A stretch of 64,000 nt of DNA from Candidatus Dojkabacteria bacterium (GCA_018056375.1 JAGPFQ010000001.1:247361-311360); one strand, 5' to 3'. Positions 1 to 17,238 are shown, counted from the first letter of the stretch. Numbers and translations: made by a program. Notes: generated by a model not told the origin, from the sequence alone.

Positions 1-1785
1 ATTACAGACTGGAGATCCCCTATTGCAAACATCTATTACCAAAACTCAGGACCAAGAGAGAATGTCTCATTCTTAGCTCCAGTAGGTGAGAGATTTGGTA
101 ATCTAAAGCAGAAAAGACAGTTTCAAATATCAAAAGGTAGAATTAGAGGTATTTACGATGCAAAATCTGGAAATGTTGCAGCAGATGAATTCCTCTTAGC
201 ACAGCTACAGGAGAGAATTGGAAAGAAATTGCAAGATATTGTCTCAACAATCCAAGCCCAACAAAACGAAATTATTAGAGGAAATATAAATGAACCGATA
301 TTAATTCAAGGTGTAGCAGGAAGTGGAAAAACAACAATTCTTCTTCATAGGTTAGCATATCTCTTCTACACATACTCAAAAGAAATTAATGATCAGAACT
401 CTCTCATAATTGCTCCTAACCAAATGTTTATCGATTATGTTTCTGATGTTCTTCCGAATCTAGGTGTTGGGAAGGTGGAAACTCTAACATACCTTTTCTG
501 GGGCAGAAAAGTATTAGATTGGGATAAATATTACATAGTATCTAATGAAGCACCAGAAGATAAACATAAAGAGTATAAAGGCTCTATTGAATTCTTAAAC
601 ATTCTGGACAAGTATTTTGAAGATTTTGAACATGAGCTACTTGAAAACATTCCTAGTTATATTAAAGAATCAATTGCTCATAGATACTACGAACTAAAAG
701 AAGGTTTTACAGATATTGATATGTTTGAAAGAGTATCACTAGCTACAGAGTATGCATTTGCACAGAAAAAGTTTTCTGCATACAAAGAAGGAAAAATAAA
801 TATGAAAGATGAGTTTGTAGAAGAGACTAAAAAGAAGATTTTAGAATATTTCAAAAAGAGATGTAACCCCTACTCTCTTTATAAGGATCTTTTTAGAAGT
901 AATTTGTTACTTAAAGATATTTCAAAGTACTCATTGGATGGATTAACTCATAAAGGAAGAGTACGAACATACAGGACAGAGGATTTAGCTCCCATTGTAT
1001 ATCTTCATTTCAAAATCCATGGGAAGAAAGATTTTGAGAGAGGATATGTGATGATTGATGAAGCACAAGATATGAGTTTTGTACAACTAGCAACACTTAC
1101 TCAAATTGCAAAGAATGGGAATCTTACACTTGCTGGAGATTTGGCACAATCAATAATACCTCCTTTCTACATTAAAGATTGGGATGATGTAATTAAACTC
1201 GTTCAAGAGATTACAGGAAAAGAATGTAAATATCACCAGCTACAAAAATGTTACAGAACAACAGTAGAGATTATAGAATTTGCAAATTCCTTCTTTAAAA
1301 AGCATTTTCCTAAATCTTACAAACTTCCAGAAGCTGTTCTAAGACATGGTGATGATGTGAAATTCTTAAAGACTGAGAGAGATCTTGCTGAGATGGAGAA
1401 AGATGATATTAAAGAGATTATTCAAATCCTTAAAGATGATTTCAAGAAAGGTTCTGTAACATCTGCTTGTTTAACTAGAGACAGGCAACATGCAGACGAG
1501 ATATACGATGTTCTTAAAAACCATGCAGAAGAAATTGGTGAAAAAGTCGTAAGATATGATGAAAACAATTATCAAAGAGGTGTTTTAGTCATGCCAATAG
1601 AGAGTGCTAAGGGTTTAGAGTTTGACTCGGTAATTCTAGCTGATATAAACTCCAAGTATTATGAAGACACACTACTATGTTCCAAACTCCTCTATGTTGG
1701 TATAACAAGAGCTTTACATAGATTGTATGTGCTTGTAAATAAGAATGATAAATTTTCTAAGGATTTTGCTAATGTTTCTTTGTGA
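1..1785 (+). CDS. UvrD/HelD-like superfamily-1 helicase, 5'-partial. Frame 1 is open from base 1, so the gene starts upstream of the window.
   Basis: The upstream in-frame translation contains DWRSPIANIYY, a HelD-type N-terminal motif. Walker A is GVAGSGKTT. The C-terminal region MPIESAKGLEFDSVIL fits the UvrD_C family. There are no stops in frame 1 before base 229. Confidence 0.7.
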   Translation: MTDWRSPIANIYYQNSGPRENVSFLAPVGERFGNLKQKRQFQISKGRIRGIYDAKSGNVAADEFLLAQLQERIGKKLQDIVSTIQAQQNEIIRGNINEPILIQGVAGSGKTTILLHRLAYLFYTYSKEINDQNSLIIAPNQMFIDYVSDVLPNLGVGKVETLTYLFWGRKVLDWDKYYIVSNEAPEDKHKEYKGSIEFLNILDKYFEDFEHELLENIPSYIKESIAHRYYELKEGFTDIDMFERVSLATEYAFAQKKFSAYKEGKINMKDEFVEETKKKILEYFKKRCNPYSLYKDLFRSNLLLKDISKYSLDGLTHKGRVRTYRTEDLAPIVYLHFKIHGKKDFERGYVMIDEAQDMSFVQLATLTQIAKNGNLTLAGDLAQSIIPPFYIKDWDDVIKLVQEITGKECKYHQLQKCYRTTVEIIEFANSFFKKHFPKSYKLPEAVLRHGDDVKFLKTERDLAEMEKDDIKEIIQILKDDFKKGSVTSACLTRDRQHADEIYDVLKNHAEEIGEKVVRYDENNYQRGVLVMPIESAKGLEFDSVILADINSKYYEDTLLCSKLLYVGITRALHRLYVLVNKNDKFSKDFANVSL

Positions 1786-2164
1786 TAACTGTAAGAAAAA
1801 GGTAAAAGAAAGTGGTAATATAGGAACACTCCATAGAAATCATTGTCCATATTGTCTTTTTTCTAAACATTTAGATGATAAAAAACCTGGAGATAGAGAA
1901 TCTAAATGTCATGGTAAGATGGAACCAATAGCATTAGCTTACAAAAAAGATGGAGAGATTATGTTAGTTCATAAGTGTGAAGTTTGTGCAGATGTATCAA
2001 CTAATAGAATATCTGCTGATGACAGTGAAGAAGAGATATTAAATGTTTTTAATAAATCTGTTTTAAATAATGAAAAAGATAAGTTAGCAAAAATAGAAAG
2101 TTCCTTAAGAATATTAGGAGAAGAAGATAAGGATGAGGTAAAGAAACAACTATTTGGAATTTAA
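1772..2164 (+). CDS. RNHCP-domain zinc-ribbon protein. The start was moved to the inner Met (MFLCDNCKK), so it overlaps the helicase 3' end.
   Basis: The protein has a CDNC...HRNHCPYC...CEVC Cys pattern. The literal RNHCP motif is present. Confidence 0.55.
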   Translation: MFLCDNCKKKVKESGNIGTLHRNHCPYCLFSKHLDDKKPGDRESKCHGKMEPIALAYKKDGEIMLVHKCEVCADVSTNRISADDSEEEILNVFNKSVLNNEKDKLAKIESSLRILGEEDKDEVKKQLFGI

Positions 2165-2206
2165 ATGGTATCATCTATTTATATAAAATAACAAAAATCT
2201 ATATTC

Positions 2207-2782
2207 ATGAATAAACCAAAAATAGCTAGAGTGATATCAGAAATCTTTAATGGTTTTGTGACTATGATGTTAGCACCAATACTTGCTATCTTTTTCTCTT
2301 CCCTAACCTTAAAGTTAAAATTTCTCTATTCTGGTCTCTATATAATCTTACCTATACTTGTTTACTTAATTCTTAAGAAATTAGGTAAGGTTTCAGATTA
2401 TGAATTAACAAAAAGAGAGGAAAGACCTATCTATTTTGTAACAATAACAGTACTTTTTGGTGTGCTTTTCTTCATACTGAGAAGTCACAATATTGAAACT
2501 GTTACATATGTTTCTCTTACTCTCTTTGCAATAGCTTCAGCTATTACAATTGTTACATTTGCTTGGAAGATGAGTGGCCATATGACGTATTCTACATATC
2601 TTTTTTGTACTCTAGCCTATCTTTTTTCTCCATATTTCTTTTTAATGTTTCTTTTTACACCTTTAATTGCATGGTCTAGAGTAGAACTTAAAAAGCATAC
2701 CTTAGCACAAACAATTGTAGGAACATTACTAACATTTGCAGTATGTGCAACTATATATTGGGGATTAGGATTGTTTAAATAA
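2207..2782 (+). CDS. Polytopic membrane protein of unknown function.
   Basis: Five or six hydrophobic helices. No recognisable catalytic motif. Confidence 0.4.
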   Translation: MNKPKIARVISEIFNGFVTMMLAPILAIFFSSLTLKLKFLYSGLYIILPILVYLILKKLGKVSDYELTKREERPIYFVTITVLFGVLFFILRSHNIETVTYVSLTLFAIASAITIVTFAWKMSGHMTYSTYLFCTLAYLFSPYFFLMFLFTPLIAWSRVELKKHTLAQTIVGTLLTFAVCATIYWGLGLFK

Positions 2783-2809
2783 AGCTAGCTTAATCTGTAC
2801 GATTACCTT

Positions 2810-5800
2810 TTACAACGGTTTAAATCCAACTTCTTTCTTGTATATAGATTTATCTACATCAAAGAAGTTTTCTGCAAATTTAGTATATTTAGGATGGTAG
2901 TTAATGATTAGGGCTGGTCTTAGAGGGTTGTCTGCACCTAAGTTTCTTTGTAGAACGAATGCAGGAGATTCTCCTCCAATACCAAAGGCTATTAGTCCTC
3001 CTACTAGTAATACTTGGTCATGGTTTTCACTTACAGCTGCATCTTGGGCTATCGTTATTCTTTCTTTAGCAAGTAGGAATGCATCTATTCTGTCTGTACC
3101 ACCAGTAGCATGTCCATCGTTTACAATGATGTTCTTTTCTGAGAATACAAACATTGCATCATTGTTACTACTAGCATTTAGATTTCCTGTTATGGTTGTG
3201 TTACCTTTAGAATATATGAGGATTTTGCCACTGTATGTAATACCTCCTACATTTATATCTCCATCAGAACTGTAGTAGCATCCTAATTCTGACGTACAAT
3301 TTAATGTAGAGAGATTTCCAAGTTTTTTAAGCTTATTATTAGACATAGAGTTGTTTGCTTCTCTCTTGAGTGCTTCATAGAGGCTTACTTTGTTTTGTGC
3401 GTTTGTATCCTCTACTCCTTTGGCTACTGCTGGGTTTGGATTTGGTTCTGTGTTGTTGAAGTTTAGAATTATTGATATTGGATTTATACCATTTGCTTTT
3501 GTTGTTAATAGTTCTGAACCTAAGTTGTAGTAGTTAATATTAGGTTCTAGTTTTTTAGTTTCGTACTTAACTGTACCTTCTGAGTAAAATATTCCTCCTT
3601 TGGTAGACATCCATCTGTTGTAATCAAAAGGATCTGGGTCATCTGGGAATGGAGGTTCATCTGGATCTGGGTTTTGGTCTTGTCTACCAGTTCCACCAAA
3701 GTTACATGCTCTGTCATAGAGGGTTACATCGAACTTCAATGTACCAGAGGCTGTGTCACCTGTGTTAACAATCATATTTGTGGAATTACCATTGGAGTTT
3801 GTAGGATGATACCAACCACTTGTAATTACGATATTACCTTGTGCATCATAGCCGATATTACCCATCTCATCTGCACTGAGATTACCTGGTATTACTGCTT
3901 TTACTGGAATCGGAAGTGTTCTTGTTACCTCCTTTTTAGATGAAGAGCTAACATTTACAACTGTATGAACAATTTGAGAGTTAGGATGTCCTTTATCTGT
4001 ACTGGTCCATTTGAGTTGTAGGTTTTTTTGATCTTCTGTTGCAAGTCTATCAAGTGTTATTGCTGTTAATCTAGGATTTTTAAAATCAAAGTTCCATATC
4101 TGTCCTGTATTTTTAACAGACCTAATATCTGCAAAGTATCCATGTGGTTGGGTTGGGAAGAGTGTTAGATTATCCATCATACCTGTCCATATTTGGTATC
4201 TACCAGACAATGGTATGTTCTTTTCAAATTCGATTTTAATTGTCATATCTGTTGTATCTGTAGGATTTTGTGCATTCTTTACACTTTCCAGTGTTATTGT
4301 AGCTATTTTTGTTCTTTTACCATTATTGTTTACATATATGTATGGTTGTTGAATATTTGAGTTCTGTGGTACATCTCTACCCCAACCTTCAAAACCATTT
4401 CCATTATGTGATTTATATATGCCACCCATGGTATGAACCATTATCCCTATCTTATTTGGGTCTGATAATGTTGCACCTGGTCCTACGCCTGTGAGTGTGT
4501 TTCGTTCATTATCGATTGTACTTCCTTCTTTAACTAACCAGAGTACTGCAGCATTTATTCTGTGGTTTGCATCATCTTGTTCTGCTGCAAGATTAGTATT
4601 TATATCTCTTCCCTTTATTGTAAATGTGAGAATTCTGTTAGCTTCATTACCAGTGTATCTTGCTTCTGGTGTACATCCTTTAGCAGTGTTACCGGTTGTA
4701 TTGCCTGTTACAGTTGTAGAGATTACAGTAGGTGGTGTGTTTACTACGAAGTTGACTGATTTTGTAGTACCTTTGACCCAATTATCATCACATTTGTTTA
4801 GTGTTTCAAAAAAGGAAGAGAGTGTACCTTGATTTCCAGGGTTAAGTGATGGTGCTGTAGTTGGGATGTTGATAAAAGAGTTGAAGGGATTATCAACATT
4901 TAAGGTTCTTAGAATACCATTTAGTGTTACTCTTAAACCTCTTGCAGTGCTAGGTATACCAGGATTGTTTGTTTCTGTCCTTATCTCTGATGTTTTGTAT
5001 GGATATCGAATTACTGTTCTTCTTGTAGAAGAGAGTGGTTGGTATGTCGTCCATTCGAAATTATTAATACCTAATCTTTCATATATTTTAATACTTGTAA
5101 CATCAGGAACTGAGTTGTTGGTTTCTATATGATAGCAATCTGACTGATTACAGGTTTGTAAATTACCACAAGTATTAGTGTCTTGACAAGATGCTGGAAT
5201 ACCTAGACATAAATCACCTGTTTTAGTTGTTTTATAATTAATATTATTAAAGTTACTTGTTGCACACATTGCATCGGTTACTGTACATGAAGGTTCTGGG
5301 CAAGTACATGGAGGATTATCACCAGGTGGGACAAAGTGATAACCACAACATGCTCCAGCACCAATCTGGTCTGAACCACCACCAGCAACTGGTGGAGTAC
5401 ATCCGTATTCTTGGTACCAGCATGGTTTCCAAAGCTTTACACATGGATGCTCAGACTTCCAATCACAACCGTCCGGTGTACATGTTCCTTGCTTATTCTG
5501 CCAACCACAAGATACTTGGCAATTGGCTTCACATTGTGTTTTTGAATAATAACCTGTTGGTGTGGTAGGATGATCACAATAATGACCATTATCATTATGA
5601 TCAGTACCGCCACATATCCCGCCATAGGCAAGACTTTTACAAGTAGGTTTATCTCCACCAGAGCATGAGTAATAATAAATACCACCAACCTGATTACCAG
5701 TAGCACACACAGGTTCTGCTGGTGCCATAATGGGGGTGCAATCAACCCACGTAGCAAAAACAGATGATGGTAAGATGAGGAAGAGAAGCAAAACAATGAA

Positions 5801-5851
5801 CTTTACTAGAATTTTCTTACAAAGTTTTAATGGGTCCACATCAAAACACAC
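2810..5851 (-). CDS. Giant secreted protein of 1013 aa. It has a signal peptide, a Cys-rich N-terminal region of about 250 aa, and a long Asn/Thr/Gly-rich presumably beta-rich body.
   Basis: The N-terminus is hydrophobic (LLLFLILPSSVFA). There are more than 40 Cys in the first roughly 250 residues (CTCPEPSC, CGYHF and others). The remainder is Cys-poor and N/T/G-rich. It is the last gene of a minus-strand run. Confidence 0.55.
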   Translation of the reverse strand: MCFDVDPLKLCKKILVKFIVLLLFLILPSSVFATWVDCTPIMAPAEPVCATGNQVGGIYYYSCSGGDKPTCKSLAYGGICGGTDHNDNGHYCDHPTTPTGYYSKTQCEANCQVSCGWQNKQGTCTPDGCDWKSEHPCVKLWKPCWYQEYGCTPPVAGGGSDQIGAGACCGYHFVPPGDNPPCTCPEPSCTVTDAMCATSNFNNINYKTTKTGDLCLGIPASCQDTNTCGNLQTCNQSDCYHIETNNSVPDVTSIKIYERLGINNFEWTTYQPLSSTRRTVIRYPYKTSEIRTETNNPGIPSTARGLRVTLNGILRTLNVDNPFNSFINIPTTAPSLNPGNQGTLSSFFETLNKCDDNWVKGTTKSVNFVVNTPPTVISTTVTGNTTGNTAKGCTPEARYTGNEANRILTFTIKGRDINTNLAAEQDDANHRINAAVLWLVKEGSTIDNERNTLTGVGPGATLSDPNKIGIMVHTMGGIYKSHNGNGFEGWGRDVPQNSNIQQPYIYVNNNGKRTKIATITLESVKNAQNPTDTTDMTIKIEFEKNIPLSGRYQIWTGMMDNLTLFPTQPHGYFADIRSVKNTGQIWNFDFKNPRLTAITLDRLATEDQKNLQLKWTSTDKGHPNSQIVHTVVNVSSSSKKEVTRTLPIPVKAVIPGNLSADEMGNIGYDAQGNIVITSGWYHPTNSNGNSTNMIVNTGDTASGTLKFDVTLYDRACNFGGTGRQDQNPDPDEPPFPDDPDPFDYNRWMSTKGGIFYSEGTVKYETKKLEPNINYYNLGSELLTTKANGINPISIILNFNNTEPNPNPAVAKGVEDTNAQNKVSLYEALKREANNSMSNNKLKKLGNLSTLNCTSELGCYYSSDGDINVGGITYSGKILIYSKGNTTITGNLNASSNNDAMFVFSEKNIIVNDGHATGGTDRIDAFLLAKERITIAQDAAVSENHDQVLLVGGLIAFGIGGESPAFVLQRNLGADNPLRPALIINYHPKYTKFAENFFDVDKSIYKKEVGFKPL

Positions 5852-5859
5852 TTAATTTA

Positions 5860-7263
5860 TTACTGTCCAAACAAATTGCTTGGCTTACCAAAAAGGATAT
5901 GGTGTTGAGGTGTTACTGGAAATTCTTCCATTGTATCTATTGTATTGATGGTGTAGTTAACTTCTCCTCTTTCATTTCCTGGCTTTACAAAAGATATTAC
6001 TCCTATAATTTTTCCTTTCTGTTTATCTGTATATATATCAACCTTTATAGCAACATCCTCATCAAATCGCATAATTACATCACCTATCTGTTCATCACCT
6101 TCCCTTCTTAGAGAAGCTCCTTGTTCATAGAGTTCATAAGGTGTTATTCCCTCCCTAATACAAGCAAACAACCTTTCATCAGAGTGTTCTCTTGCAATTT
6201 CGGTAGCTACTCTAGCATGTACCAATTTGCGGCTAATATGGTCTGCCATGACTGCAATGGAATCCCAATGTCCTTCATACAACCTTCTCATGAGATTATA
6301 ACCAGATTCTTCATAGTTAATCATCTCGGAGAATCGAACTTCTTCCCCATTCTCGTACTTTTTTGTAGACATATTTTGGAAAGCTAAAGCTAGTGCATCT
6401 GATTCTGCTTGTGAAATATGATTAAAGAAAATCGGTATGATAGTTAACACTTCCCCTGCCTCTCTTTCTTCTGCAAAGTCATATCTTAGATTGTTTTTAT
6501 CTGCAACTGACAAAATAACTGACACTCTATTACAATCTTTACCTGTATAGTCCTCCACACAAGCATTACCTACAACTCCAACTTGAATAGTATTTCCTTC
6601 TTGATCTGTAACTGTTCTTCTATGCAAAATTGGGAAATCAAGTGATGTAGCCTCCATTAGTGAGACTGACATTTTCCTAACTACCTCGTCTTCCTTAGGT
6701 GAAAATATCTTTGAAAAATATATCCTTGAAGGATCAACAGTATAAACTTTGTTAATATTCTGTTCTAGTCTCTTTTCTCTAAGTGTATCACTACTTAATA
6801 TCTTCTCTAGAAGTGCTTCTGCTTCCTCCCTCTCCATATCTCTTCTAAATTCAGGCGTAGGTGTTTGTGTAGGGGTTGATATCTCTGTCGCTGTAGGTGT
6901 AAATGTTGTAGATACAGTTGGTTCTGGAGTATATGTTGGAGTAGACAACTCTGTTGTAGAAGTTGAGGTAGGAGCTTGTTCTTTCCTTACGGTTTCTGTT
7001 GGTCTACCTCCTTTGGTTTCCTCAGTTTCGCTAATATAATCTTGATTTGGCAGAGTATTACAACCTACTGCTCCTTTAGCCATAGCTAAAGCTGCTAATG
7101 ATAAAATAAGCTTTGTTTTAGGACTATATTTAGATTTCGCCTTTGGTTTTTCTTCTATACTCTCCTGCCCATACACTATATCCACATCATCCATTTCCTC
7201 AAAATCTGCTACTAAATCTTGGTCTTCTTGGGCAGGTTCTACAAAGTGTTCTTGTTCGTTCAT
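5860..7263 (-). CDS. Membrane-anchored protein. It has an acidic N-terminal tail, one TM or lipobox-like segment (LAALAMAKGAVGC), a Thr/Pro-rich linker and a globular domain of unknown function.
   Basis: Composition and hydropathy of the translation. There is a TPTYTPEPT...TPTQTPTPE linker. Confidence 0.45.
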   Translation of the reverse strand: MNEQEHFVEPAQEDQDLVADFEEMDDVDIVYGQESIEEKPKAKSKYSPKTKLILSLAALAMAKGAVGCNTLPNQDYISETEETKGGRPTETVRKEQAPTSTSTTELSTPTYTPEPTVSTTFTPTATEISTPTQTPTPEFRRDMEREEAEALLEKILSSDTLREKRLEQNINKVYTVDPSRIYFSKIFSPKEDEVVRKMSVSLMEATSLDFPILHRRTVTDQEGNTIQVGVVGNACVEDYTGKDCNRVSVILSVADKNNLRYDFAEEREAGEVLTIIPIFFNHISQAESDALALAFQNMSTKKYENGEEVRFSEMINYEESGYNLMRRLYEGHWDSIAVMADHISRKLVHARVATEIAREHSDERLFACIREGITPYELYEQGASLRREGDEQIGDVIMRFDEDVAIKVDIYTDKQKGKIIGVISFVKPGNERGEVNYTINTIDTMEEFPVTPQHHILFGKPSNLFGQ

Positions 7264-7275
7264 ATAAAATATTTT

Positions 7276-8440
7276 TTAATTAGAATTTATATAGGATATT
7301 ATATCAAGTCTTTTGGTCAAAGGGCTTTCAAACTCTTTAAGAGAGATAATTAAAGTATTCTCAAGATCTATTACTTCATTTGTTTCTTCAGTCAGTTTAT
7401 TTATTAAATCTACTCCATCGGTGAGAGGTTGATTTTCTCCTATAAAGTCATCTTTATTCATGCAAAATATTTCAAGCATTAGAGGAGGTTTTTCAATTTT
7501 ACATATACTATCAATCTCTTCTGAAGAATGTTTAAAATCTTTTGTCAAATAACCTAAGCTCAACTCATATTTCCCTCCTATCTTTATATCTTCCATATTC
7601 TCTGTGGTTATTACAGTTCCATCCTCTTTGTCCTCTTTTTTGAAATGGAAGCCTCTCGTTTTAGCTGTAAACTTAACTTCCTTATCCTTAATCCTTGAAG
7701 TAAAAGTCATATAGATAAAATCTTCTTTAATTTCCTTATCTGTAAGTATTGTTTCAAGTATGATTATTTTTCCTGTTTCTTCTATAGTAAGAGCGTATTT
7801 ATCTACGGTTATATAGTTCTGAAAATCTTCTATATTCAGATAGTTGGTTTTAACGTTGGAATTATTCCACCTTGGTGGTTTATCTGTTTGTACAAAGGAG
7901 TTGTAATATTCTTCTTCGGTAGCATTCCTTATCTCTATATTGTTGTAATAGTAGTGACCATAATCTTTTGTTGAATACACAAAAGAGTATATTGTTGGTG
8001 TTAGTTTATCTTTCTCTTCTTTCCACTTATCTATTTCGTGCCATAGAATATTTTTCTCTTCTATACAGAAGTTCATCAACTCTGGCTGTTTATCTTTCTC
8101 TTTACTAGATAAAATCAGGATATTGAAACAATGATTTTCAATCTTATTGTCTAGTGGGGTTGAAGGATAAATAAGTGCATTACAACTTACTTTTATCACC
8201 CCCCCCCATTTTAATATGATCACAATCTTCCAACATCTCTTCGTACCTATCTAATGTAAACCACCTACCATATTTAATACCATTAGATATGACATCTTTG
8301 TAAAGAAGTGAAATACCACTAAATAGTAGAATGAAAAAAAAGATAGATAACAAGCGTATTGTATTGTTAGAAGCAACTACCTTCATTGAAAAAAAATTAT
8401 ACCACAAAACCTCCATTACACAAATTTCAATAATACTCAT
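7276..8440 (-). CDS. Single membrane-anchored protein gene split by a G9 homopolymer frameshift. Track ORFs 8180..8440 and 7276..8223 overlap at the tract. A G8 variant would give one ORF of about 388 aa.
   Basis: The upstream ORF ends KMGGGDKSKL* and the downstream ORF begins ...KWGGVIK. Both read through the same GGGGGGGGG run. The two frames differ by 1. The N-terminal piece carries a TM helix (LLSIFFFILLFSGISLL). Confidence 0.45.
8199..8207 (-). repeat. Homopolymeric G9 tract (C9 on the + strand) inside a coding region. It is a slipped-strand phase-variation candidate or a sequencing error.
   Basis: Read directly: ttttatcaccccccccccatttt. A 9-nt G/C run is extreme in this AT-rich sequence. 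Confidence 0.8.
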
Positions 8441-8446
8441 GTTTAC

Positions 8447-9655
8447 CTACTTTGATGTATAGTCATCAAAATAACCCTGTACTAAAACAACAGGAGTCCC
8501 TTTATCACCACTACCACTTGTAAGATCCATAAGGCTTCCTAGAAGGTCTGTGAGTTGTCTAGGAGTAGTTCCTAAAGAATTCTTTCCATTGTACTCCTTA
8601 CTCTTCTTTTCATTAATAGCATCCTCTACACACTTTTTAATATCACCCTTACCATCCCAATTTTCAGAAATCACTTTTAGTTTTACCTCTTTTGGTCTAC
8701 CAACTAACCCATCAGTATATGCAGGAGAAACAACAGGATCTGCTAGCTCCCATATTTGTCCTACAGGATCCTTAAATGCACCATCTCCATATATCATTAC
8801 TTCTATCTTTGCACCTGTTTTCTCAAATAGCTCCTTCTGTATCTTTCTTACCAAAACTTCACCCTCTTTTACCCTAGGAAACAATTTCATATTCCCCTCT
8901 CCTACTTTGTTAGCTCCAAGCAAACCATAGTCTACATTGTACCCTCTTCCTTCTACTACCTCATTACAGATATCCTCTAAACCATATACAACCTGTCCAC
9001 CACCTTCTTTAATCAATCTCTTTGTCTTTTTCCTGTTATGTATATCACAAACTAAAACATTCTTTGTAAAGTTTAATATATATTTAGGATTGTTTGAGAA
9101 GTGAGGAATAACTTGTCCTTCTTTTCCTAAACTTTTGTAGTATTCAATGTAGTCTAAACCTGTAAATTCGTGTTTAAAATCATAACCGAATACCTCTCTA
9201 AATTCTTTTTCATCAAAAGAGTCATTTAGACTTACATCTTCTATCATTTTTGGATCAAGAATATGATTGCCAACTTCATCTGATGGGTAGCTGAAAAGGA
9301 TATGAACCTTTTTACAAGCTTTAAGAATAGCTTCAAGTATCATGGAGAATCTGTTTCTACTTAGTATTGGAAAGACTAAACCTATATCTTCACTACCAAA
9401 CTTTTTCTCAATCTCTTTAGCAACATCATCTATACTTACATAGTTAGAGTCACAGATGGATACAACTGCTTCTGTTATTCCAACTACATCTTTGTTATTA
9501 AACTTAAAACCATCACTTTTAGATGCTCTAAGTAACGAATCAACAACAATATCTACAAGGTTATCACCATGTTTGATAATTGGGGTTCTGATTCCCCTTA
9601 CAACTGTTCCTGTGTTTCTCATTTGTATGATTTTAAAATTATTACAGCAGAACAA
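8447..9655 (-). CDS. CofE-like protein of the F420-0:gamma-glutamyl ligase family (long form).
   Basis: The N-terminus PIIKHGDNLVDIVVDSL...DVVGITEAVVS and the C-terminus GTPVVLVQGY resemble the CofE fold signatures. Family-level call only. Confidence 0.4.
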   Translation of the reverse strand: MFCCNNFKIIQMRNTGTVVRGIRTPIIKHGDNLVDIVVDSLLRASKSDGFKFNNKDVVGITEAVVSICDSNYVSIDDVAKEIEKKFGSEDIGLVFPILSRNRFSMILEAILKACKKVHILFSYPSDEVGNHILDPKMIEDVSLNDSFDEKEFREVFGYDFKHEFTGLDYIEYYKSLGKEGQVIPHFSNNPKYILNFTKNVLVCDIHNRKKTKRLIKEGGGQVVYGLEDICNEVVEGRGYNVDYGLLGANKVGEGNMKLFPRVKEGEVLVRKIQKELFEKTGAKIEVMIYGDGAFKDPVGQIWELADPVVSPAYTDGLVGRPKEVKLKVISENWDGKGDIKKCVEDAINEKKSKEYNGKNSLGTTPRQLTDLLGSLMDLTSGSGDKGTPVVLVQGYFDDYTSK

Positions 9656-9824
9656 AAGGCTTTTATTGCAACAATTTCTTTAATATGGATATACATTAAT
9701 GATAATGTTGCATATTATTATTTCATAATATAGAGATGAGGGCAAGAGGAAAAATGAACTAGTAAAGACAAATATCAAAGATACTTAATTGTAGTTATAA
9801 AGTGTTTGAATCAAAACAAATTAT

Positions 9825-10574
9825 TTATCTAATCTTTTTAATAATTTCTTCCTGCTCATTTGTTGATATAAAAGGTGTTTGTATTCTAAGTTTCGCACCA
9901 GTACTAATATCTTTGTAAATCATATCCCCATTACCTAACAACTCTTCAGCACCATCTTCCTCTATAACCAACTCAGATTCTTCCTTTGTAGGTAGAAATC
10001 CTGTAAGTCTACTAGGTATCAAATCTTTTAAGTTTTTTGTAAAAACAGAATCCCTTGTAGCTGATGTAGAAAGTAACATGTATATACCAACATGCTTTCC
10101 GTTCTTGGCAATATTCTCTAGGAGTAAATCTATACCATTTCTAGAATGCATTAAGTTTGCAAACTCATCAATAATAACAACAATGGCTGGATGTTTGTAA
10201 GAAGATCTCTTTCTCTTCTCTATTTCTTCTACACACCAGTTTAATACTTCTAGTGTTGTATCTATAGAGGTAACAACAGGGAATAATAAGTGAGGTATAC
10301 CATCAAAGAATGGTAGATTAACCATTTTAGAATCTATCATTACAAACTTAACATCTTCAGATTTTTTAGTTAAAAGTGTTGTACATATGAAAGAATTAAG
10401 AAAAGCTGATTTACCAGAACTAGTACTACCAGAAATTAGAATATTTTTAATATCTACTAAGTCTTTTACGATAACATCACCTTTAGTATCCTTTCCTAAT
10501 ATAACAGGAAGAGTGTATTTATCTTCATTAAGGTCTTTAAGAATGTCTTTTAAGTAAATAATTTTGTTGTTCAC
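9825..10574 (-). CDS. Stand-alone FtsK/SpoIIIE-family ATPase (motor) domain protein, 249 aa, with no TM or gamma domain.
   Basis: LPVILGKDTKGDVIVKDL...ILISGSTSSGKSAFLNS matches the FtsK LPIALGKD...GTTGSGKS region. Walker B is VVIIDEFANL. The C-terminus LRIQTPFISTNEQEEIIKKI matches the FtsK end. Confidence 0.6.
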   Translation of the reverse strand: MNNKIIYLKDILKDLNEDKYTLPVILGKDTKGDVIVKDLVDIKNILISGSTSSGKSAFLNSFICTTLLTKKSEDVKFVMIDSKMVNLPFFDGIPHLLFPVVTSIDTTLEVLNWCVEEIEKRKRSSYKHPAIVVIIDEFANLMHSRNGIDLLLENIAKNGKHVGIYMLLSTSATRDSVFTKNLKDLIPSRLTGFLPTKEESELVIEEDGAEELLGNGDMIYKDISTGAKLRIQTPFISTNEQEEIIKKIR

Positions 10575-10661
10575 TTTAGTATTGTTAATAGTATTTTAAT
10601 TATTATAACAGAAGTATTGTATGTTTTATTTAGATTATCAGAAATGGTAGTATATATAGTT

Positions 10662-11945
10662 ATGAATAGAAATAAACAGATTAAAGTTATAGACTTATTC
10701 GCAGGTGTAGGAGGTTTCAGAGTTGCTTTCAATCAAGCAAATGAAACAATAGGAAAAAATGTTTACAAGGTTGTTTGGGGAAATCAATGGGAGCCAGAGA
10801 GAAAAGCACAATACGCAGCAGAAATATATGTTAGAGAGTTTGGTAAAGAAGATTTTGTAAATGAAGATATTGCTAAAGTAGAAACTAAGGATATTCCTAA
10901 TCATGACTTAATGGTTGGAGGTTTTCCTTGCCAAGATTACTCTGTAGCAACAACAAAAAAGCTTTCTGGTGGTATAGAAGGAAAGAAAGGTGTTTTGTGG
11001 TGGCAAATAGAAAGAATCATTCGAGAGAAGGCTGACAAAAAACCTGAATTCCTACTGTTTGAAAATGTCGACCGACTAATCAGTTCACCTGCAAAACAAC
11101 GAGGAAGAGATTTCGCAATAATGTTGGCTTGTCTAGATATGCTTGGATATATGGTGGAATGGAGAGTTATTGATGCAAGTGAATATGGTTATCCTCAAAG
11201 AAGAAAACGTATTTATTTTATGGGTTATCGTGATAATTCAAAAATCTATAAATCATATGATGGCAATTACCCTGCATGGATATTAGAAAAAGGTCTGTTC
11301 GCTAAGGGCTTTCCTGCAAAGATTAAAGGAAATTCGACATTTAACAGCATATCGCTTTACAAAGGAATTCGAAGTAGAAAATATTCTTCAATAATTAGAG
11401 ATATTAGTGACAAATTCAATAAAGGTGGAAAAGTATCTCCTTTTAAAAAAGCTGGATTAATATATAAGGGTGAAATACATACCATTGAAGTAGAAGCTGA
11501 CTACAAAGGGAAAAAGACTACGCTTGGCGATATTATTATCAAAGAAGAATCAAAGATTGATAAAGAATTTTTCATTCCTAAAGAAGAATATCCTAAATGG
11601 AAATATCTAAAAGGTGCAAAGAAAGAAAATAGAGTGCAAAAGTCGACAGGTTTTGTTTATCAATATTCTGAAGGTGCAATCACATATCCAGATGCCTTAG
11701 ACAAACCATCAAGGACAATTATCACTGCAGAAGGTGGAAAAGCACCATCAAGGTTTAAACATGTGATAAAAACAAAGTCCGGTAAATTACGTAGACTAAC
11801 TCCTGTTGAATTAGAGAGATTAGACATGTTCCCAGATAACCATACAGAGGGATATACACCACAAACTCGAGCATTTCTAATGGGCAATGCCCTCGTGGTA
11901 GGAGTAATAAAGAAGATTGCAGAAACACTATATGAGAAAATGTAA
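10662..11945 (+). CDS. DNA (cytosine-5)-methyltransferase. The start was moved to MNRNKQIKVIDLFAG.
   Basis: Motif I is DLFAGVGGF. Motif IV is GGFPCQDYS. Motif VI is LLFENV. Motif VIII is QRRKRIYF. Motif X is GNALVVGV. Confidence 0.85.
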   Translation: MNRNKQIKVIDLFAGVGGFRVAFNQANETIGKNVYKVVWGNQWEPERKAQYAAEIYVREFGKEDFVNEDIAKVETKDIPNHDLMVGGFPCQDYSVATTKKLSGGIEGKKGVLWWQIERIIREKADKKPEFLLFENVDRLISSPAKQRGRDFAIMLACLDMLGYMVEWRVIDASEYGYPQRRKRIYFMGYRDNSKIYKSYDGNYPAWILEKGLFAKGFPAKIKGNSTFNSISLYKGIRSRKYSSIIRDISDKFNKGGKVSPFKKAGLIYKGEIHTIEVEADYKGKKTTLGDIIIKEESKIDKEFFIPKEEYPKWKYLKGAKKENRVQKSTGFVYQYSEGAITYPDALDKPSRTIITAEGGKAPSRFKHVIKTKSGKLRRLTPVELERLDMFPDNHTEGYTPQTRAFLMGNALVVGVIKKIAETLYEKM

Positions 11946-13284
11946 ATACGGTCAGTATGACGAAAAATCTAAAGAATCAATATTAGAGTATGCCCTTCTC
12001 TTGTTAAACAAGTCATTATTTGACTTATATGCTGAAGAAATCGAGAAAGAAATAGTAAAACGAAAAGGTAAGGGTTCTCTAGGACAATTAGTTGAAGAAT
12101 TACATTTTAATTATGAACCCAATGAAAAACCAGTACCTGACTTCCCAGAAGCAAACTTAGAGTTAAAGACAACACCTTTAAAAATTGTTCGAGGTGAATA
12201 TGTTTCAAAAGAACGGCTTGTTTTAAACATGATAGATTATTTTAAGATTGTAGAAGAAACTTTTGATACTTCTTCATTCCTCAAGAAAAACTCTTCTCTG
12301 CTTTTAATGTTTTATCTCTTTGAGAAAGGTGAAATACATAAACAAATATTCAAACTTATTAAAATCTGGGACATTCCAAAAAATGATTATTTAGTTATAA
12401 AAGAAGATTGGGAAAAAATAGCCTCAATGGTAAGGGAAGGAAGAGCAGAAGAAATATCTGGAGGAGACACCTTTTATCTTGAAGCTGCAAGAAAAGGTGC
12501 TGGTAAAGGCAAAGATTTAACCAAACAACCCTACTCTGATGTTCTTGCAAATAGAAGAGCTTTTGCATTTAAAAGCAGGTATGTGAATGAGATAATAAAA
12601 GCTGATGGAAGTTTAGAGAGTGTACTAGATGAAGAATTTAACGAAAGTAAGAAGACTGTTGAACAGTATATTATAGATAAATTCAAACCATATCTTGGTA
12701 AATCTCTAGGTGAATTAGAGAAGATATTCAACCTTTCCTACTCAAAGAAAAAGAAGGATAAAACAGCTGCAATCTCTAAGGCTATTTTAGGTGTTTCTGA
12801 AGACAATAAAATTGCAGAATTTGAGAAAGCAAATATACAAATGAAAACTATACCTCTAAGTTTAAATGGTCGTGTCAAAGAGAGTATGTCTTTTAGTAGA
12901 ATTTATTATAAAAAGATAATAAATGAAAAATGGCTTGATTCTGACTTTTACAATAAAGTTGTAGATAGAAAATTCTTTTTTGTAATATTCAGAGATAATA
13001 AACAAGGAAACAGAATTTTGGAAAGAGTAATGTTTTGGAATATGCCTAGTCATACTAGAAAGATAGCAAAAGAATACTGGTTGGATATTAGAAGGAAAGT
13101 TAGAAACAATGATACTTCAAACTTCTGGAAAATCTCTGATAAAAAAGTATTCCATGTTAGACCAAAAGCGAGAAATGCTATGGATACAACGACTCTTAGA
13201 GATGGAACAGAAGCCCCAAAGTTAGCATACTGGATTAATGCTAAATATATAGAATCAGTAATCGAGGGACAAGAAATAGGATAA
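11917..13284 (+). CDS. MutH/Sau3AI-family type II restriction endonuclease, probably GATC-type. It forms an R-M pair with the adjacent C5-methyltransferase.
   Basis: GSLGQLVEEL...PDFPEANLELKTTPL matches the MutH region G.LGELA...PEQDFAALGVELKTIP. The size and the C5-methyltransferase partner fit the Sau3AI arrangement. The start overlaps the methyltransferase 3' end. Confidence 0.55.
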   Translation: MQKHYMRKCKYGQYDEKSKESILEYALLLLNKSLFDLYAEEIEKEIVKRKGKGSLGQLVEELHFNYEPNEKPVPDFPEANLELKTTPLKIVRGEYVSKERLVLNMIDYFKIVEETFDTSSFLKKNSSLLLMFYLFEKGEIHKQIFKLIKIWDIPKNDYLVIKEDWEKIASMVREGRAEEISGGDTFYLEAARKGAGKGKDLTKQPYSDVLANRRAFAFKSRYVNEIIKADGSLESVLDEEFNESKKTVEQYIIDKFKPYLGKSLGELEKIFNLSYSKKKKDKTAAISKAILGVSEDNKIAEFEKANIQMKTIPLSLNGRVKESMSFSRIYYKKIINEKWLDSDFYNKVVDRKFFFVIFRDNKQGNRILERVMFWNMPSHTRKIAKEYWLDIRRKVRNNDTSNFWKISDKKVFHVRPKARNAMDTTTLRDGTEAPKLAYWINAKYIESVIEGQEIG

Positions 13285-13294
13285 ACAATAAAAG

Positions 13295-13368
13295 TGAGGT
13301 GCCTGGGACTCGAACCCAGCACCAACTGCTTAAAAGGCAGTTGCTCTAACCTGATGAGCTAGCACCCC
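13295..13368 (-). tRNA. tRNA-Lys(UUU).
   Basis: Cloverleaf folded by hand. Acceptor is GGGGTGC/GCACCTC. Anticodon loop is CTTTTAA. T-loop is TTCGAGT. No encoded CCA. Confidence 0.85.
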
Positions 13369-15468: not shown

Positions 15469-15993
15469 CTATTCCTTATTACACAAATCTATCTCTAACT
15501 TAACCTGACAATCTTTATCTAACTGTCTATACTTCACACCACATTCATCAAACAATCTCTTTGATGCAATAACAGAGTCTGTATTAGCATATTTATCTGA
15601 TAGATATATTACCTCTTTAATTCCTACTTGAACTATCCCCTTTGCACATTCATTACATGGGAAAAGGTCTACATATAGTCTTGCTCCTTCCATATCCTTG
15701 TTACTACCCCTGTAATTTAACATTGCATTTCTCTCAGCATGTACAACATATGGATATTTAGTTTCTAAATATTCACCTTCTCTATCCCAAGGAAAACTCT
15801 CATCTTCCCAACTATTAGGTGCTCCATTGTAACCTATTGAAAGTATTCTGTTATCACTACCTACTATACATGCACCAACCTGAGTACTAGGATCTTTACT
15901 TCTCATAGCAGAGAGTTTAGCTATAGCCATGAAGTAAACATCCCAACTAATTCTGTCTTTTCTTTCTAGATTGTATTTTTTTGTTTTTGACAT
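15469..15993 (-). CDS. dCMP deaminase of the cytidine/deoxycytidylate deaminase family.
   Basis: HAERNAM and PCNECAK zinc-binding motifs. Confidence 0.75.
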   Translation of the reverse strand: MSKTKKYNLERKDRISWDVYFMAIAKLSAMRSKDPSTQVGACIVGSDNRILSIGYNGAPNSWEDESFPWDREGEYLETKYPYVVHAERNAMLNYRGSNKDMEGARLYVDLFPCNECAKGIVQVGIKEVIYLSDKYANTDSVIASKRLFDECGVKYRQLDKDCQVKLEIDLCNKE

Positions 15994-16068
15994 ACCTCAT
16001 TATATCAAAAATATCCAACTTGAACATTGCATACACATCTCCCATTTGTTACAATTCATGTTACAAAT

Positions 16069-16141
16069 GCTGGTATAGCTCAGTTGGTAGAGCATTCCCT
16101 TCGTAAGGGACAGGTCGATGGTTCGAGACCATCTACCAGCT
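16069..16141 (+). tRNA. tRNA-Thr(CGU).
   Basis: Acceptor is GCTGGTA/TACCAGC. Anticodon loop is TTCGTAA. T-loop is TTCGAGA. Confidence 0.85.
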
Positions 16142-16155
16142 TCTGTTTTACAATT

Positions 16156-17238
16156 ATGAAAACACCAAAATATACACTAACAAACCTAATGCTAGACTAC
16201 ATAGTTAAATATGAACTAGCTATCAAAGATATTAAATACAATCCTCTTCCTGAGAAATACAAGAGTATTATAGAAGAGAAATATGCAACTGAAGACATTA
16301 TGAAAATGAGTAGCTTAGTTGCTTCCCCAATTGGTTACAACAAAGCATTGATAATACAAAGAGGACAAGAAACACCTTCTGAAAGAAAGAAGTTAAAGAT
16401 ATTTACAAACTTTAGAAATGCTAAAGATTTTCTAAGGTCATACAACAATAGATCATCCTTGAAACCATCAATTGAATTAGCTATGCACTTAAACAGATTA
16501 ATACTTAAAGATGTTGTAGATGATTGGGATGTAGGGAAGTTAAGAGGTTTCTCTGAAAAGCCAAATGAGATATATGATACATGGTACAAAAATAGAGACT
16601 TCTATCCTAATCTTGATATAACAGCACATTTCAATGAACTCTTTGATTGGATACAGAATGCTTCTGATAACAATCATAAATTGATTAAAATAGGAGTAAT
16701 GATATATGAGTTTCTAGATAAAGCTCCTTTTACAGCAGGAAATCAAATTACAGCAATACTAGTAGCTGAGATTCTTGCAAAGAAATATGATTACAATCCA
16801 GATAATATATTCCCTTACTTTAAATCCATAGAATATATCTCAGAGGACTTACTAGCTGCACATAAAATGACAAAACCAAAACTAGACCTTACTCCTTTTC
16901 TTGAAGCATTTCTGTATACAATCTCTCTTACATCTCTAGAAGTATCAAAAGAATTTAAAGATACATATACTCAAAAGGTTAAGAAACAAGGGTCATTAGA
17001 ACTATACCTAACTCCAAGACAGATACAGATTTTAGATTTTCTTTCACTTAATCAGAAAGTAAATAGAAGTCAATTAGTAGACCTTCTAGGTGTTTCCTTT
17101 ATGACTTGTTTTAGAGATGTGAAAGATATGATTGAAAAGGGATATCTAACACAAAAAGGTAAAGGTAAAGCAACATTCTATACATTAAGTAAGAAGATGT
17201 TAGAGAAGGAAGATAGAATGGCACCGATAATTGAATAG
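16156..17238 (+). CDS. Fic/DOC-family protein with a degenerate Fic motif and a C-terminal winged-helix domain. The start was moved downstream of tRNA-Thr.
   Basis: APFTAGNQITAILVAEIL aligns to the Fic motif HPFxxGNGRxxR with His replaced by Ala and GR replaced by QI. The C-terminus LTPRQIQILDFLSLNQKVNRSQLVDLLGVS looks like an HTH. Confidence 0.45.
   Translation: MKTPKYTLTNLMLDYIVKYELAIKDIKYNPLPEKYKSIIEEKYATEDIMKMSSLVASPIGYNKALIIQRGQETPSERKKLKIFTNFRNAKDFLRSYNNRSSLKPSIELAMHLNRLILKDVVDDWDVGKLRGFSEKPNEIYDTWYKNRDFYPNLDITAHFNELFDWIQNASDNNHKLIKIGVMIYEFLDKAPFTAGNQITAILVAEILAKKYDYNPDNIFPYFKSIEYISEDLLAAHKMTKPKLDLTPFLEAFLYTISLTSLEVSKEFKDTYTQKVKKQGSLELYLTPRQIQILDFLSLNQKVNRSQLVDLLGVSFMTCFRDVKDMIEKGYLTQKGKGKATFYTLSKKMLEKEDRMAPIIE

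Follow-up and report, generated by a model that had tools for sequence, protein, structure and literature searches.

A candidate poly-G-switched surface cassette beside a core CofE-like gene in a composite locus of Candidatus Dojkabacteria

Contingency loci, best described in Campylobacter jejuni, Neisseria and Haemophilus, carry homopolymer tracts in which gains or losses of one nucleotide toggle the reading frame of a gene for a surface component; the genome of C. jejuni NCTC11168 holds 29 polyG/C tracts of at least 7 nt (PMC4965091). The locus described here lies on 64,000 nucleotides of a Candidatus Dojkabacteria bacterium (GCA_018056375.1 JAGPFQ010000001.1:247361-311360; this whole stretch is called the window) and consists of minus-strand genes for a giant secreted protein (BIG, 1013 aa), a 467-aa threonine/proline-rich (T/P-rich) protein, a frameshifted transmembrane (TM) anchor protein, a CofE-like protein and a stand-alone FtsK-like ATPase. 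It shares with contingency loci a poly-G tract of 8-10 nt in the 5′ part of a predicted surface-component gene, an AT-rich (33% GC) genome and the occurrence of ON and OFF alleles, differing by single-nucleotide changes, on near-identical backgrounds. However, it belongs to an uncultivated phylum within the Candidate Phyla Radiation (CPR), its proteins are uncharacterised, only one such tract is present in 64 kb and the case is known from assemblies alone. Moreover, the gene that would be switched is not that of BIG but of its anchor partner.

Two other groups of systems offer partial parallels. In the Vlp, Vsa and MgpB/MgpC systems of Mycoplasma, as proposed here, a reduced-genome and host-dependent bacterium diversifies anchored surface proteins by homopolymer switching and recombination between gene copies, and mosaic alleles are found in our locus too. 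Yet there is no sequence or domain relationship between those proteins and the window proteins, the tract here is coding instead of being in a promoter, and we have no evidence of an archive of silent cassettes. The second group comprises adhesins with Ig-like stalks (PrgB, SiiE, MpIBP) or beta-helices (UpaB, EtpA), which BIG resembles by its signal peptide, distal variable domain, tandem Ig/FN3-like sandwiches and beta-solenoid. In contrast to these proteins, BIG shows no sequence family membership, LPXTG motif, autotransporter barrel, RTX repeat or type I secretion signal, and would presumably be anchored through separate partner proteins.

The preliminary description of this DNA, made from the sequence alone, had proposed that the five genes could form one surface-assembly or secretion module, or an adhesin locus. 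The region is in fact a core CofE-like gene flanked by two strain-variable insertions. We consider it probable that three independent units have been juxtaposed: the CofE-like gene, an island combining a restriction-modification (RM) pair with the FtsK-like gene, and a three-gene surface cassette that includes a candidate poly-G-switched anchor gene and the adhesin-like BIG. The evidence comes from conspecific contigs (designated by L numbers). The window CofE-like protein is 99% identical to protein P0018, which is encoded on at least 24 contigs. On five of them (L011-L015), the CofE-like gene directly adjoins the PAP2, RNHCP and UvrD-like genes that flank the cluster in the window, with RNase HII on its other side. 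In nucleotide alignments, window positions 1-2784 are joined directly to 8441-9753 in these contigs, at 92-98% identity, so that 2785-8440 represents an exact insertion/deletion difference of 5,656 bp. At the position of window 9754-13288, the same contigs hold an unrelated 536 bp with a 108-aa open reading frame (ORF). Conspecific strains thus carry the CofE-like gene without either neighbour, and a five-gene surface-assembly or secretion module is not supported.

The window arrangement is not a misassembly, since a contig from another sample (L043) repeats the order MutH-methylase-FtsK-CofE-anchor-467-BIG (467 being the T/P-rich protein) and ten more (L029, L044-L052) share the CofE-cassette junction, which with L043 makes 11 other contigs. 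The five-gene arrangement is therefore real, yet specific to one strain lineage. By parsimony, the difference beside the CofE-like gene would be due to an insertion and not to a deletion.

The last three genes belong to a module that recurs in other Dojkabacteria. Relatives of BIG amounted to 17 word-indexed sequences and to 260 representative clusters in the full profile search; in a scan of the genome collection, the single BIG sequence retrieved nothing and the BIG alignment 11 loci. To define the module, every ORF in about 17 independent BIG loci, fetched with flanks of up to 10 kb, was compared by profile search, and ORF maps were used in addition. None of these loci contains an FtsK-like or CofE-like gene within the flanks of up to 10 kb. 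The five-gene synteny is therefore not conserved in relatives, an outcome that the preliminary description had itself named as speaking against its five-gene set. What does recur is an anchor-protein homologue (about 350 aa, N-terminally anchored) upstream of BIG (L001/2, L003/4/18, L006, L019, L021, L022) and, in 13 loci, a protein of about 300-356 aa following BIG, with a strongly conserved N-terminus, Y[KE][AG]QALA[IM]xMVVLVV. Homologues of the T/P-rich protein stand between the anchor gene and BIG only in L003/4/18, L005/7/8, L010, L017 and L019. Examples of the downstream partner are found at L001 12944-13918, L006 11989-12999 and L017 4590-4985, and in L019-L026.

The usual site of the module is between genes for a DnaQ-like exonuclease or PIF1 helicase and those for pyruvate:ferredoxin oxidoreductase (L001, L006, L009, L019-L021, L024); a second site is upstream of an RNase J-like gene (L003, L005, L007, L010). 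The window cassette is most likely a copy or translocation of this module into the CofE-PAP2 intergenic space. It ends just past the BIG stop codon and the downstream partner is missing, yet this partner is present in L017, which is 98% identical. The suggestion of an adhesin locus thus stands for the last three genes, which form a recurring Dojkabacteria module with an adhesin-like BIG, and falls for the FtsK-like and CofE-like genes.

The gene for the anchor protein had been described as interrupted, and this proved to be a real frameshift of a single gene: both pieces are homologous to single proteins of 346-363 aa, and intact homologues range from 346 to 369 aa. The frameshift is located exactly within a run of nine G, 179 nt into the gene. 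This is the sole G/C run of at least 7 nt in the 64 kb, where base composition predicts 0.013 runs of at least 9 nt. Deletion of one G yields a 369-aa product whose repaired junction is the same as that of P0138 (98% identical overall), and P0138, itself of 369 aa, is encoded with a G8 tract on L029, a contig with the same CofE junction. Among 12 sequences, G8 was observed in one contig, G9 in the window and four contigs and G10 in six contigs. G8 leaves the frame intact (ON, 369 aa); G9 and G10 shift it (OFF), and the window is in the OFF form. Two contigs are nearly indistinguishable from the window (L049, 99.94% and L050, 99.97% identical) and differ from it in length at the tract alone. 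Over about 39 kb of contig-window alignments, the tract is essentially the only indel site, and A/T runs of 7-8 nt hardly vary there, with one T7/T8 and one A6/A7 difference.

Similarly, all G/C runs of at least 8 nt in the 560 kb of fetched loci fall at this offset in the anchor gene, including a G8 in a different species (L019, UBA5232); L003 has G6 at this site. The cluster of anchor proteins at 90% identity contains intact forms of 369, 370 and 387 aa from about 44 contigs and frameshift products of 315, 307 and 266 aa from tens of contigs, some of these contigs possibly being counted twice under different gene calls. Intact and frameshifted forms are both found on both allelic backgrounds. 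Cluster members are also carried by two Dojkabacteria contigs of 644,853 and 750,790 bp. Together, these features suggest that the G tract is a candidate phase-variation switch. Our literature searches found no report of phase variation in Patescibacteria/CPR.

The first question to be raised is whether the differences in tract length could be due to sequencing or assembly artefacts or to gene decay, the cassette being then constitutive or a pseudogene. Homopolymers of 8-10 G are indeed error-prone, the evidence comes entirely from metagenome assemblies and the window cassette does not have its usual downstream partner gene. On the other hand, the three lengths recur across 12 assemblies from several projects while A/T runs remain almost invariant, and ON and OFF forms occur on both allelic backgrounds. 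Another species retains a long tract at the homologous position, which neither error nor decay explains, and the stability of the A/T runs is not explained by homopolymer error. In addition, the remainder of the anchor gene is undamaged, as are the two genes downstream of it, all with 98-100% conservation. We regard artefact or decay as an unlikely explanation, which nevertheless survives better than the other alternatives considered below.

BIG is the largest member of the cassette. It begins with a signal-like hydrophobic segment. The preliminary description had counted more than 40 cysteines in its first 250 residues; there are 27, of which 25 follow the signal peptide, and the entire protein has 32, so that this figure was too high, though the N-terminal region is still Cys-rich (about 11%). 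In the predicted layout, the signal peptide is followed by a Cys-rich region (residues 34-245); beta-sandwich domains of the Ig/FN3-like kind span about 250-720, and a conserved domain resembling a beta-helix lies at the C-terminus. The AlphaFold2 model, built on an 18-sequence alignment, is confident only for residues 250-600 and moderately so for about 840-950. Searches of this model with Foldseek against the PDB gave the Ig-like domains of PrgB (E 9e-7) and also Saf pilus subunits and a Marinomonas ice adhesin; the BFVD viral fold search gave generic FN3-like matches alone. These matches reflect resemblance of predicted fold class and not family membership. In agreement with the previous view that the last three proteins have no recognisable domains, none of them gave a significant match in Pfam, NCBIfam or PADLOC, and the same searches on 18 members of the BIG family returned nothing significant. 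In distant relatives of BIG, no more was detected than a few isolated additional domains (DUF2341, Gly_rich_2 and a fragment of GH130, Glyco_hydro_130). As modelled, BIG has an adhesin-like architecture outside any known family.

The Cys-rich tip is the most variable part of BIG, with a mean pairwise identity of 33% versus 57-64% in the centre, while the majority of its cysteines recur in 10 or more of the 18 members. Such a combination would be expected of a cross-linked and diversifying distal domain. Across the 260 clusters, the part that is broadly conserved corresponds to the C-terminal 430 residues or so, and the extreme C-terminus of BIG is invariant (YHPKY...YK[RK]EVGFKP). The BIG gene has a mosaic structure. 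From the anchor gene through the 467-aa gene and up to codon 590 of BIG (position 4083), L005/7/8 match the window at about 100% identity; they then diverge from it across the last 1.3 kb of BIG (2810-4083), which encodes the conserved C-terminal domain. L017 differs from the window in one patch of 300 nt. Smaller differences relative to L005/7/8 include a 3-nt GGT-repeat indel in a Gly run of BIG (window 5377) and an A6/A7 difference located in the spacer of 12 nt that lies upstream of the 467-aa gene (window 7271). Four contigs (L046, L048, L049, L050) stop near window 5050-5080, which is what the branching of an assembly graph between variants or paralogues would be expected to produce.

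In the 467-aa protein, a hydrophobic segment that terminates in ...AVGC precedes a T/P-rich linker. This protein is possibly a lipoprotein, a status that stays uncertain because the lipobox is imperfect. An LPXTG motif or a C-terminal TM segment was looked for in BIG, the 467-aa protein and the anchor protein, and none was found.

According to the model that we propose, the cassette would have come to lie next to the CofE-like gene through copying or translocation of a module resident at other chromosomal sites in other Dojkabacteria. BIG, which has no anchor of its own, would be displayed on the cell surface via two membrane-anchored partners, one of about 369 aa held by its N-terminus and the other T/P-rich. 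Its N-terminal tip, hypervariable and stabilised by cysteines, would be borne by an Ig-like stalk that rises from a beta-helix, and BIG would act as an adhesin. A plausible target would be a host or partner cell of this ultra-small, probably episymbiotic bacterium. Slipped-strand changes in the length of the poly-G tract would switch the anchor gene (ON with G8, OFF with G9 or G10) in real time, and recombination among cassette copies would further diversify BIG.

Several points weigh against this three-unit reading and its extension to switching and adhesion. At the cassette junctions (2785/8440), a target-site duplication, a terminal repeat and an integrase were looked for and none was found. 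The window cassette is without the partner of about 320 aa present in most relatives and might therefore be an incomplete copy. The adhesin function of BIG is deduced from its architecture, and pLDDT (the per-residue confidence of the model) is below 50 for 443 of the 1013 residues, the Cys-rich region and much of the C-terminus being poorly modelled; a single-sequence AlphaFold2 prediction of the intact anchor protein gave a pLDDT of 35 and no fold. As for the switch, contigs were retrieved with the OFF-state product, which biases the ON/OFF ratio, and to this is added the possible double counting mentioned above. The tract lengths come from assembled contigs of different samples and are not read counts within a population, so that homopolymer sequencing or assembly error may contribute to them.

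Could the module be an accessory set of type IV pili, with BIG as a PilY1-like tip adhesin and the small anchored proteins as PilX- or minor-pilin-like subunits that prime or cap the pilus? Type IV pili are commonly encoded by CPR bacteria, every partner is anchored by its N-terminus, and the conserved N-terminus of the downstream partner might recall a pilin, one member giving a weak PilX_N match (E 0.21). This match is, however, far below threshold, and the pilin-like partner is not in the window. The canonical prepilin motif G/FTLIE is found in neither the anchor protein nor BIG nor the downstream partner, BIG shows no beta-propeller of the PilY1 type, and the genes called in the flanks of L001-L010 include no Pfam match of the PilB/C/M/D types. 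These observations make a pilus accessory set rather improbable.

To much the same degree, we doubt that BIG is a surface protein other than an adhesin, such as an S-layer or structural envelope component or a beta-helix carbohydrate-active enzyme, that varies to evade phages or predators. Envelope proteins and polysaccharide lyases also contain beta-helix and Ig-like domains, a Glyco_hydro_130 segment is present in one distant member of the family and DUF2341 or Gly_rich_2 in others, and high variability with recombination would fit evasion of receptor recognition by phages. Yet no catalytic family is matched by the 18 close members, and in fold BIG comes closest to the stalks and beta-helices of adhesins. 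Besides, an essential envelope component would not be missing from the conspecific locus or be switched off, though other copies may exist elsewhere in the genome.

Starting from an adhesin displayed by switchable anchors, one may speculate further that this is the first contingency locus recognised in CPR, the poly-G-switched and recombining cassette being a device for the recognition of host or partner cells. ON/OFF switching and the exchange of the tip and of the C-terminal domain could then set host range or allow escape from phages or host defences; we put this forward as a tentative possibility. Little is known about partner-cell recognition and attachment by ultra-small CPR bacteria beyond a few cultured Saccharibacteria, and the present locus is a concrete candidate. 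It offers a lineage-specific giant surface protein with a hypervariable tip, dedicated anchor partners and a marker of the ON/OFF state, the G-tract length, that can be read from sequence. Tract length and cassette alleles can be counted in the raw reads of existing public metagenomes and related to co-occurring hosts or phages; samples in which the locus is present include SRR33737691, SRR33737693/98, ERR14232075/62, ERR14173597, SRR24425298 and ERR4682395.

On the other side of the CofE-like gene, the island abutting tRNA-Lys encodes, besides the FtsK-like ATPase, a C5 DNA methyltransferase together with an endonuclease that has a double MutH domain. As the preliminary description had recognised, the 249-aa protein is an FtsK/SpoIIIE motor domain (Pfam FtsK_SpoIIIE, PF01580, E 2.7e-33). 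It aligns to residues 127-414 of the 512-residue chain 2ius_A of E. coli FtsK (E 2.4e-42) and contains Walker A (GSTSSGKS, residue 49) and Walker B (VVIIDE, residue 132) motifs. Like the FtsK/SpoIIIE translocases, it thus carries the RecA-like beta domain with both motifs; it differs from them in consisting of this domain alone, without the alpha domain, the gamma domain that binds KOPS (FtsK-orienting polar sequences) or the membrane anchor, and no hydrophobic segment was found in it. A secretion ATPase of the type VII-like EccC/EssC kind was considered and rejected, as the protein has a single ATPase domain and no TM segment and is encoded beside a methyltransferase and an endonuclease. Its similarity to EccC (E 2.5e-9) is far weaker than that to true FtsK (E 2e-42), and its NCBIfam scores for EccC/EssC are 43-51 bits versus cut-offs of 346-778.

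The closest metagenomic relatives of this protein are 509 aa long and 44% identical over its whole length; they bear (L030-L035) an extra helical C-terminal half that is missing from the window protein, which looks like a shortened version of them. One of these relatives (L033 1787-3553) is 2.5 kb from an OLD-family nuclease (AAA_15 + TOPRIM). A 391-aa ORF near such relatives (L031-L035) was tried as a CofE-like gene and turned out to be an unrelated membrane protein, leaving no FtsK-CofE linkage there. In PADLOC, the window protein gave moderate matches to the C-terminus of SspH (E 4e-25) and to mad8 of MADS (E 3e-18), defence ATPases that it also recalls by the location of its gene in a variable island with an RM pair. 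The methyltransferase (PF00145, E 4.7e-63; MTase_II, 2e-148) and the endonuclease (PF02976 in two stretches, E 1.2e-34; REase_II, 1e-77) form, from their domains, a Sau3AI-like type II restriction-modification pair. The island contains no complete known defence system and no integrase. Considering the RM pair, the variability of the island, the relative near an OLD nuclease and the SspH/mad8 matches, we infer that the FtsK-like gene most likely belongs to a defence or mobile-element island.

The CofE-like protein has the gamma-glutamyl-ligase fold previously assigned to it, with a match to the full profile of Pfam F420_ligase (PF01996, E 3.5e-48), as has CofE, the F420-0:gamma-glutamyl ligase. 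It differs from CofE in its NCBIfam scores, far under the equivalog cut-offs (TIGR01916, 34.4 bits versus 180.65; NF009809, 34.1 bits versus 274), and in being about 140 residues longer than the models (about 250 positions); in addition, its gene is core, and the lineage is not known to make F420. By sequence, it found no match in the PDB, and a literature search for CofE in CPR found nothing relevant. Homologues are abundant: all 8000 of the 8000 candidates scored passed E 1e-10, and identities range from 62 to 86% among the matches listed, several of which are named Dojkabacteria. A relative at 85% identity has entirely different neighbours. This is a widely conserved core gene, which has its own upstream region.

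It is then very improbable that the five genes form one system in which the FtsK-like ATPase would power the export or assembly of BIG and the CofE-like ligase would modify it: although they are co-directional and tightly packed, recur together in L043 and include a member of the family whose EccC/EssC ATPases drive type VII secretion, with weak NCBIfam matches to these, conspecific strains and the BIG loci elsewhere (with flanks of up to 10 kb) separate them as described above, the ATPase, devoid of TM or FHA parts, is nearer true FtsK and is encoded inside an RM island, and the CofE-like gene, being core, occurs in numerous other surroundings. Genes packed tightly in one direction in a compact CPR genome need not form a functional operon, and here a core gene is placed between two independently acquired islands.

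Transcription signals are consistent with this partition into three units, weakly so. About 130 nt upstream of the CofE-like gene are conserved in strains without the FtsK-like gene, and sigma-70-like matches occur at 9745-9699, between the FtsK-like stop and the CofE-like start. The cassette starts with a TGnTATAAT-like box, TGGTATAAT, 9 nt upstream of the likely ATG at 8386, which was not listed by the two-hexamer promoter scan. Since genes in this genome are without Shine-Dalgarno motifs, the cassette transcript may be leaderless, and TGGTATAAT could possibly be its own promoter. Three transcription units would fit the CofE upstream region and the cassette box, but the scan of the region for promoters and terminators gave 30 sites versus 34 expected from shuffled sequence, so that this evidence is weak, also with regard to the operon named in the preliminary description. 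Between the TGGTATAAT box and the anchor ATG, a run of eight T (8389-8396, minus strand; T7 in L029) constitutes a second length-variable homopolymer, in the putative promoter-start spacer.

As for the general setting, the window has 33% GC, nine scattered tRNA genes and housekeeping genes such as those for GatB, RNase HII and a UvrD-like helicase. The named homologues that best match its proteins are from Candidatus Dojkabacteria (WS6), of the CPR/Patescibacteria lineage. The co-directional layout given in the preliminary description was recovered as six minus-strand ORFs, with gaps of 8, 12, 6 and 169 nt (Table 1).

Table 1. Features of the composite locus and its surroundings (positions in the window)
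Feature	Position	Strand	Size and remarks
ORF of BIG (giant secreted protein)	2810-5851	minus	1013 aa
ORF of T/P-rich membrane-anchored protein	5860-7263	minus	467 aa; possibly lipoprotein; optional module member
Frameshifted anchor gene, two overlapping ORFs in different frames	7276-8223 + 8180-8440	minus	315 + 86 aa
Gene of TM-anchored protein, frameshifted (OFF)	7276-8386	minus	369 aa if intact; likely start ATG 8386 (MKVVASNN...)
G9 homopolymer (C9 on + strand) at the frameshift	8199-8207	minus	candidate slipped-strand phase-variation tract
TGGTATAAT, putative extended -10-like box	8396-8404	minus	read directly from the sequence
CofE-like ORF	8447-9655	minus	402 aa; likely start M12 at 9622 (391 aa; homologues 391 aa)
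Stand-alone FtsK-like P-loop ATPase	9825-10574	minus	249 aa
Strain-variable surface-cassette segment	2785-8440	minus	5.66 kb; missing in L011-L015; exact junction
Strain-variable island beside tRNA-Lys	9754-13288		3.5 kb; FtsK-like ATPase, C5 DNA methyltransferase and endonuclease
C5 DNA methyltransferase	10617-11945	+	Pfam PF00145; PADLOC MTase_II
Double-MutH-domain (Sau3AI-like) endonuclease	11917-13284	+	Pfam PF02976; PADLOC REase_II
tRNA-Lys	13294-13368		abuts the island 9754-13288

Two minor observations concern other parts of the material. In a related Dojkabacteria metagenome-assembled genome whose CofE-like protein is 85% identical to that of the window (L016 1-2234), a 2311-aa protein with VWA/SpaA domains and a sortase are encoded a few kb from the CofE-like gene, which indicates that this lineage also has sortase-type pili or adhesins. 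Further along the window, a tRNA-Thr (16069-16141, +) falls within a listed 403-aa ORF at 16027-17238; near 15990-16044, conspecific contigs show an alignment break (15989/16045) and gene calls of 349 or 403 aa, and this looks like another small strain-variable spot.

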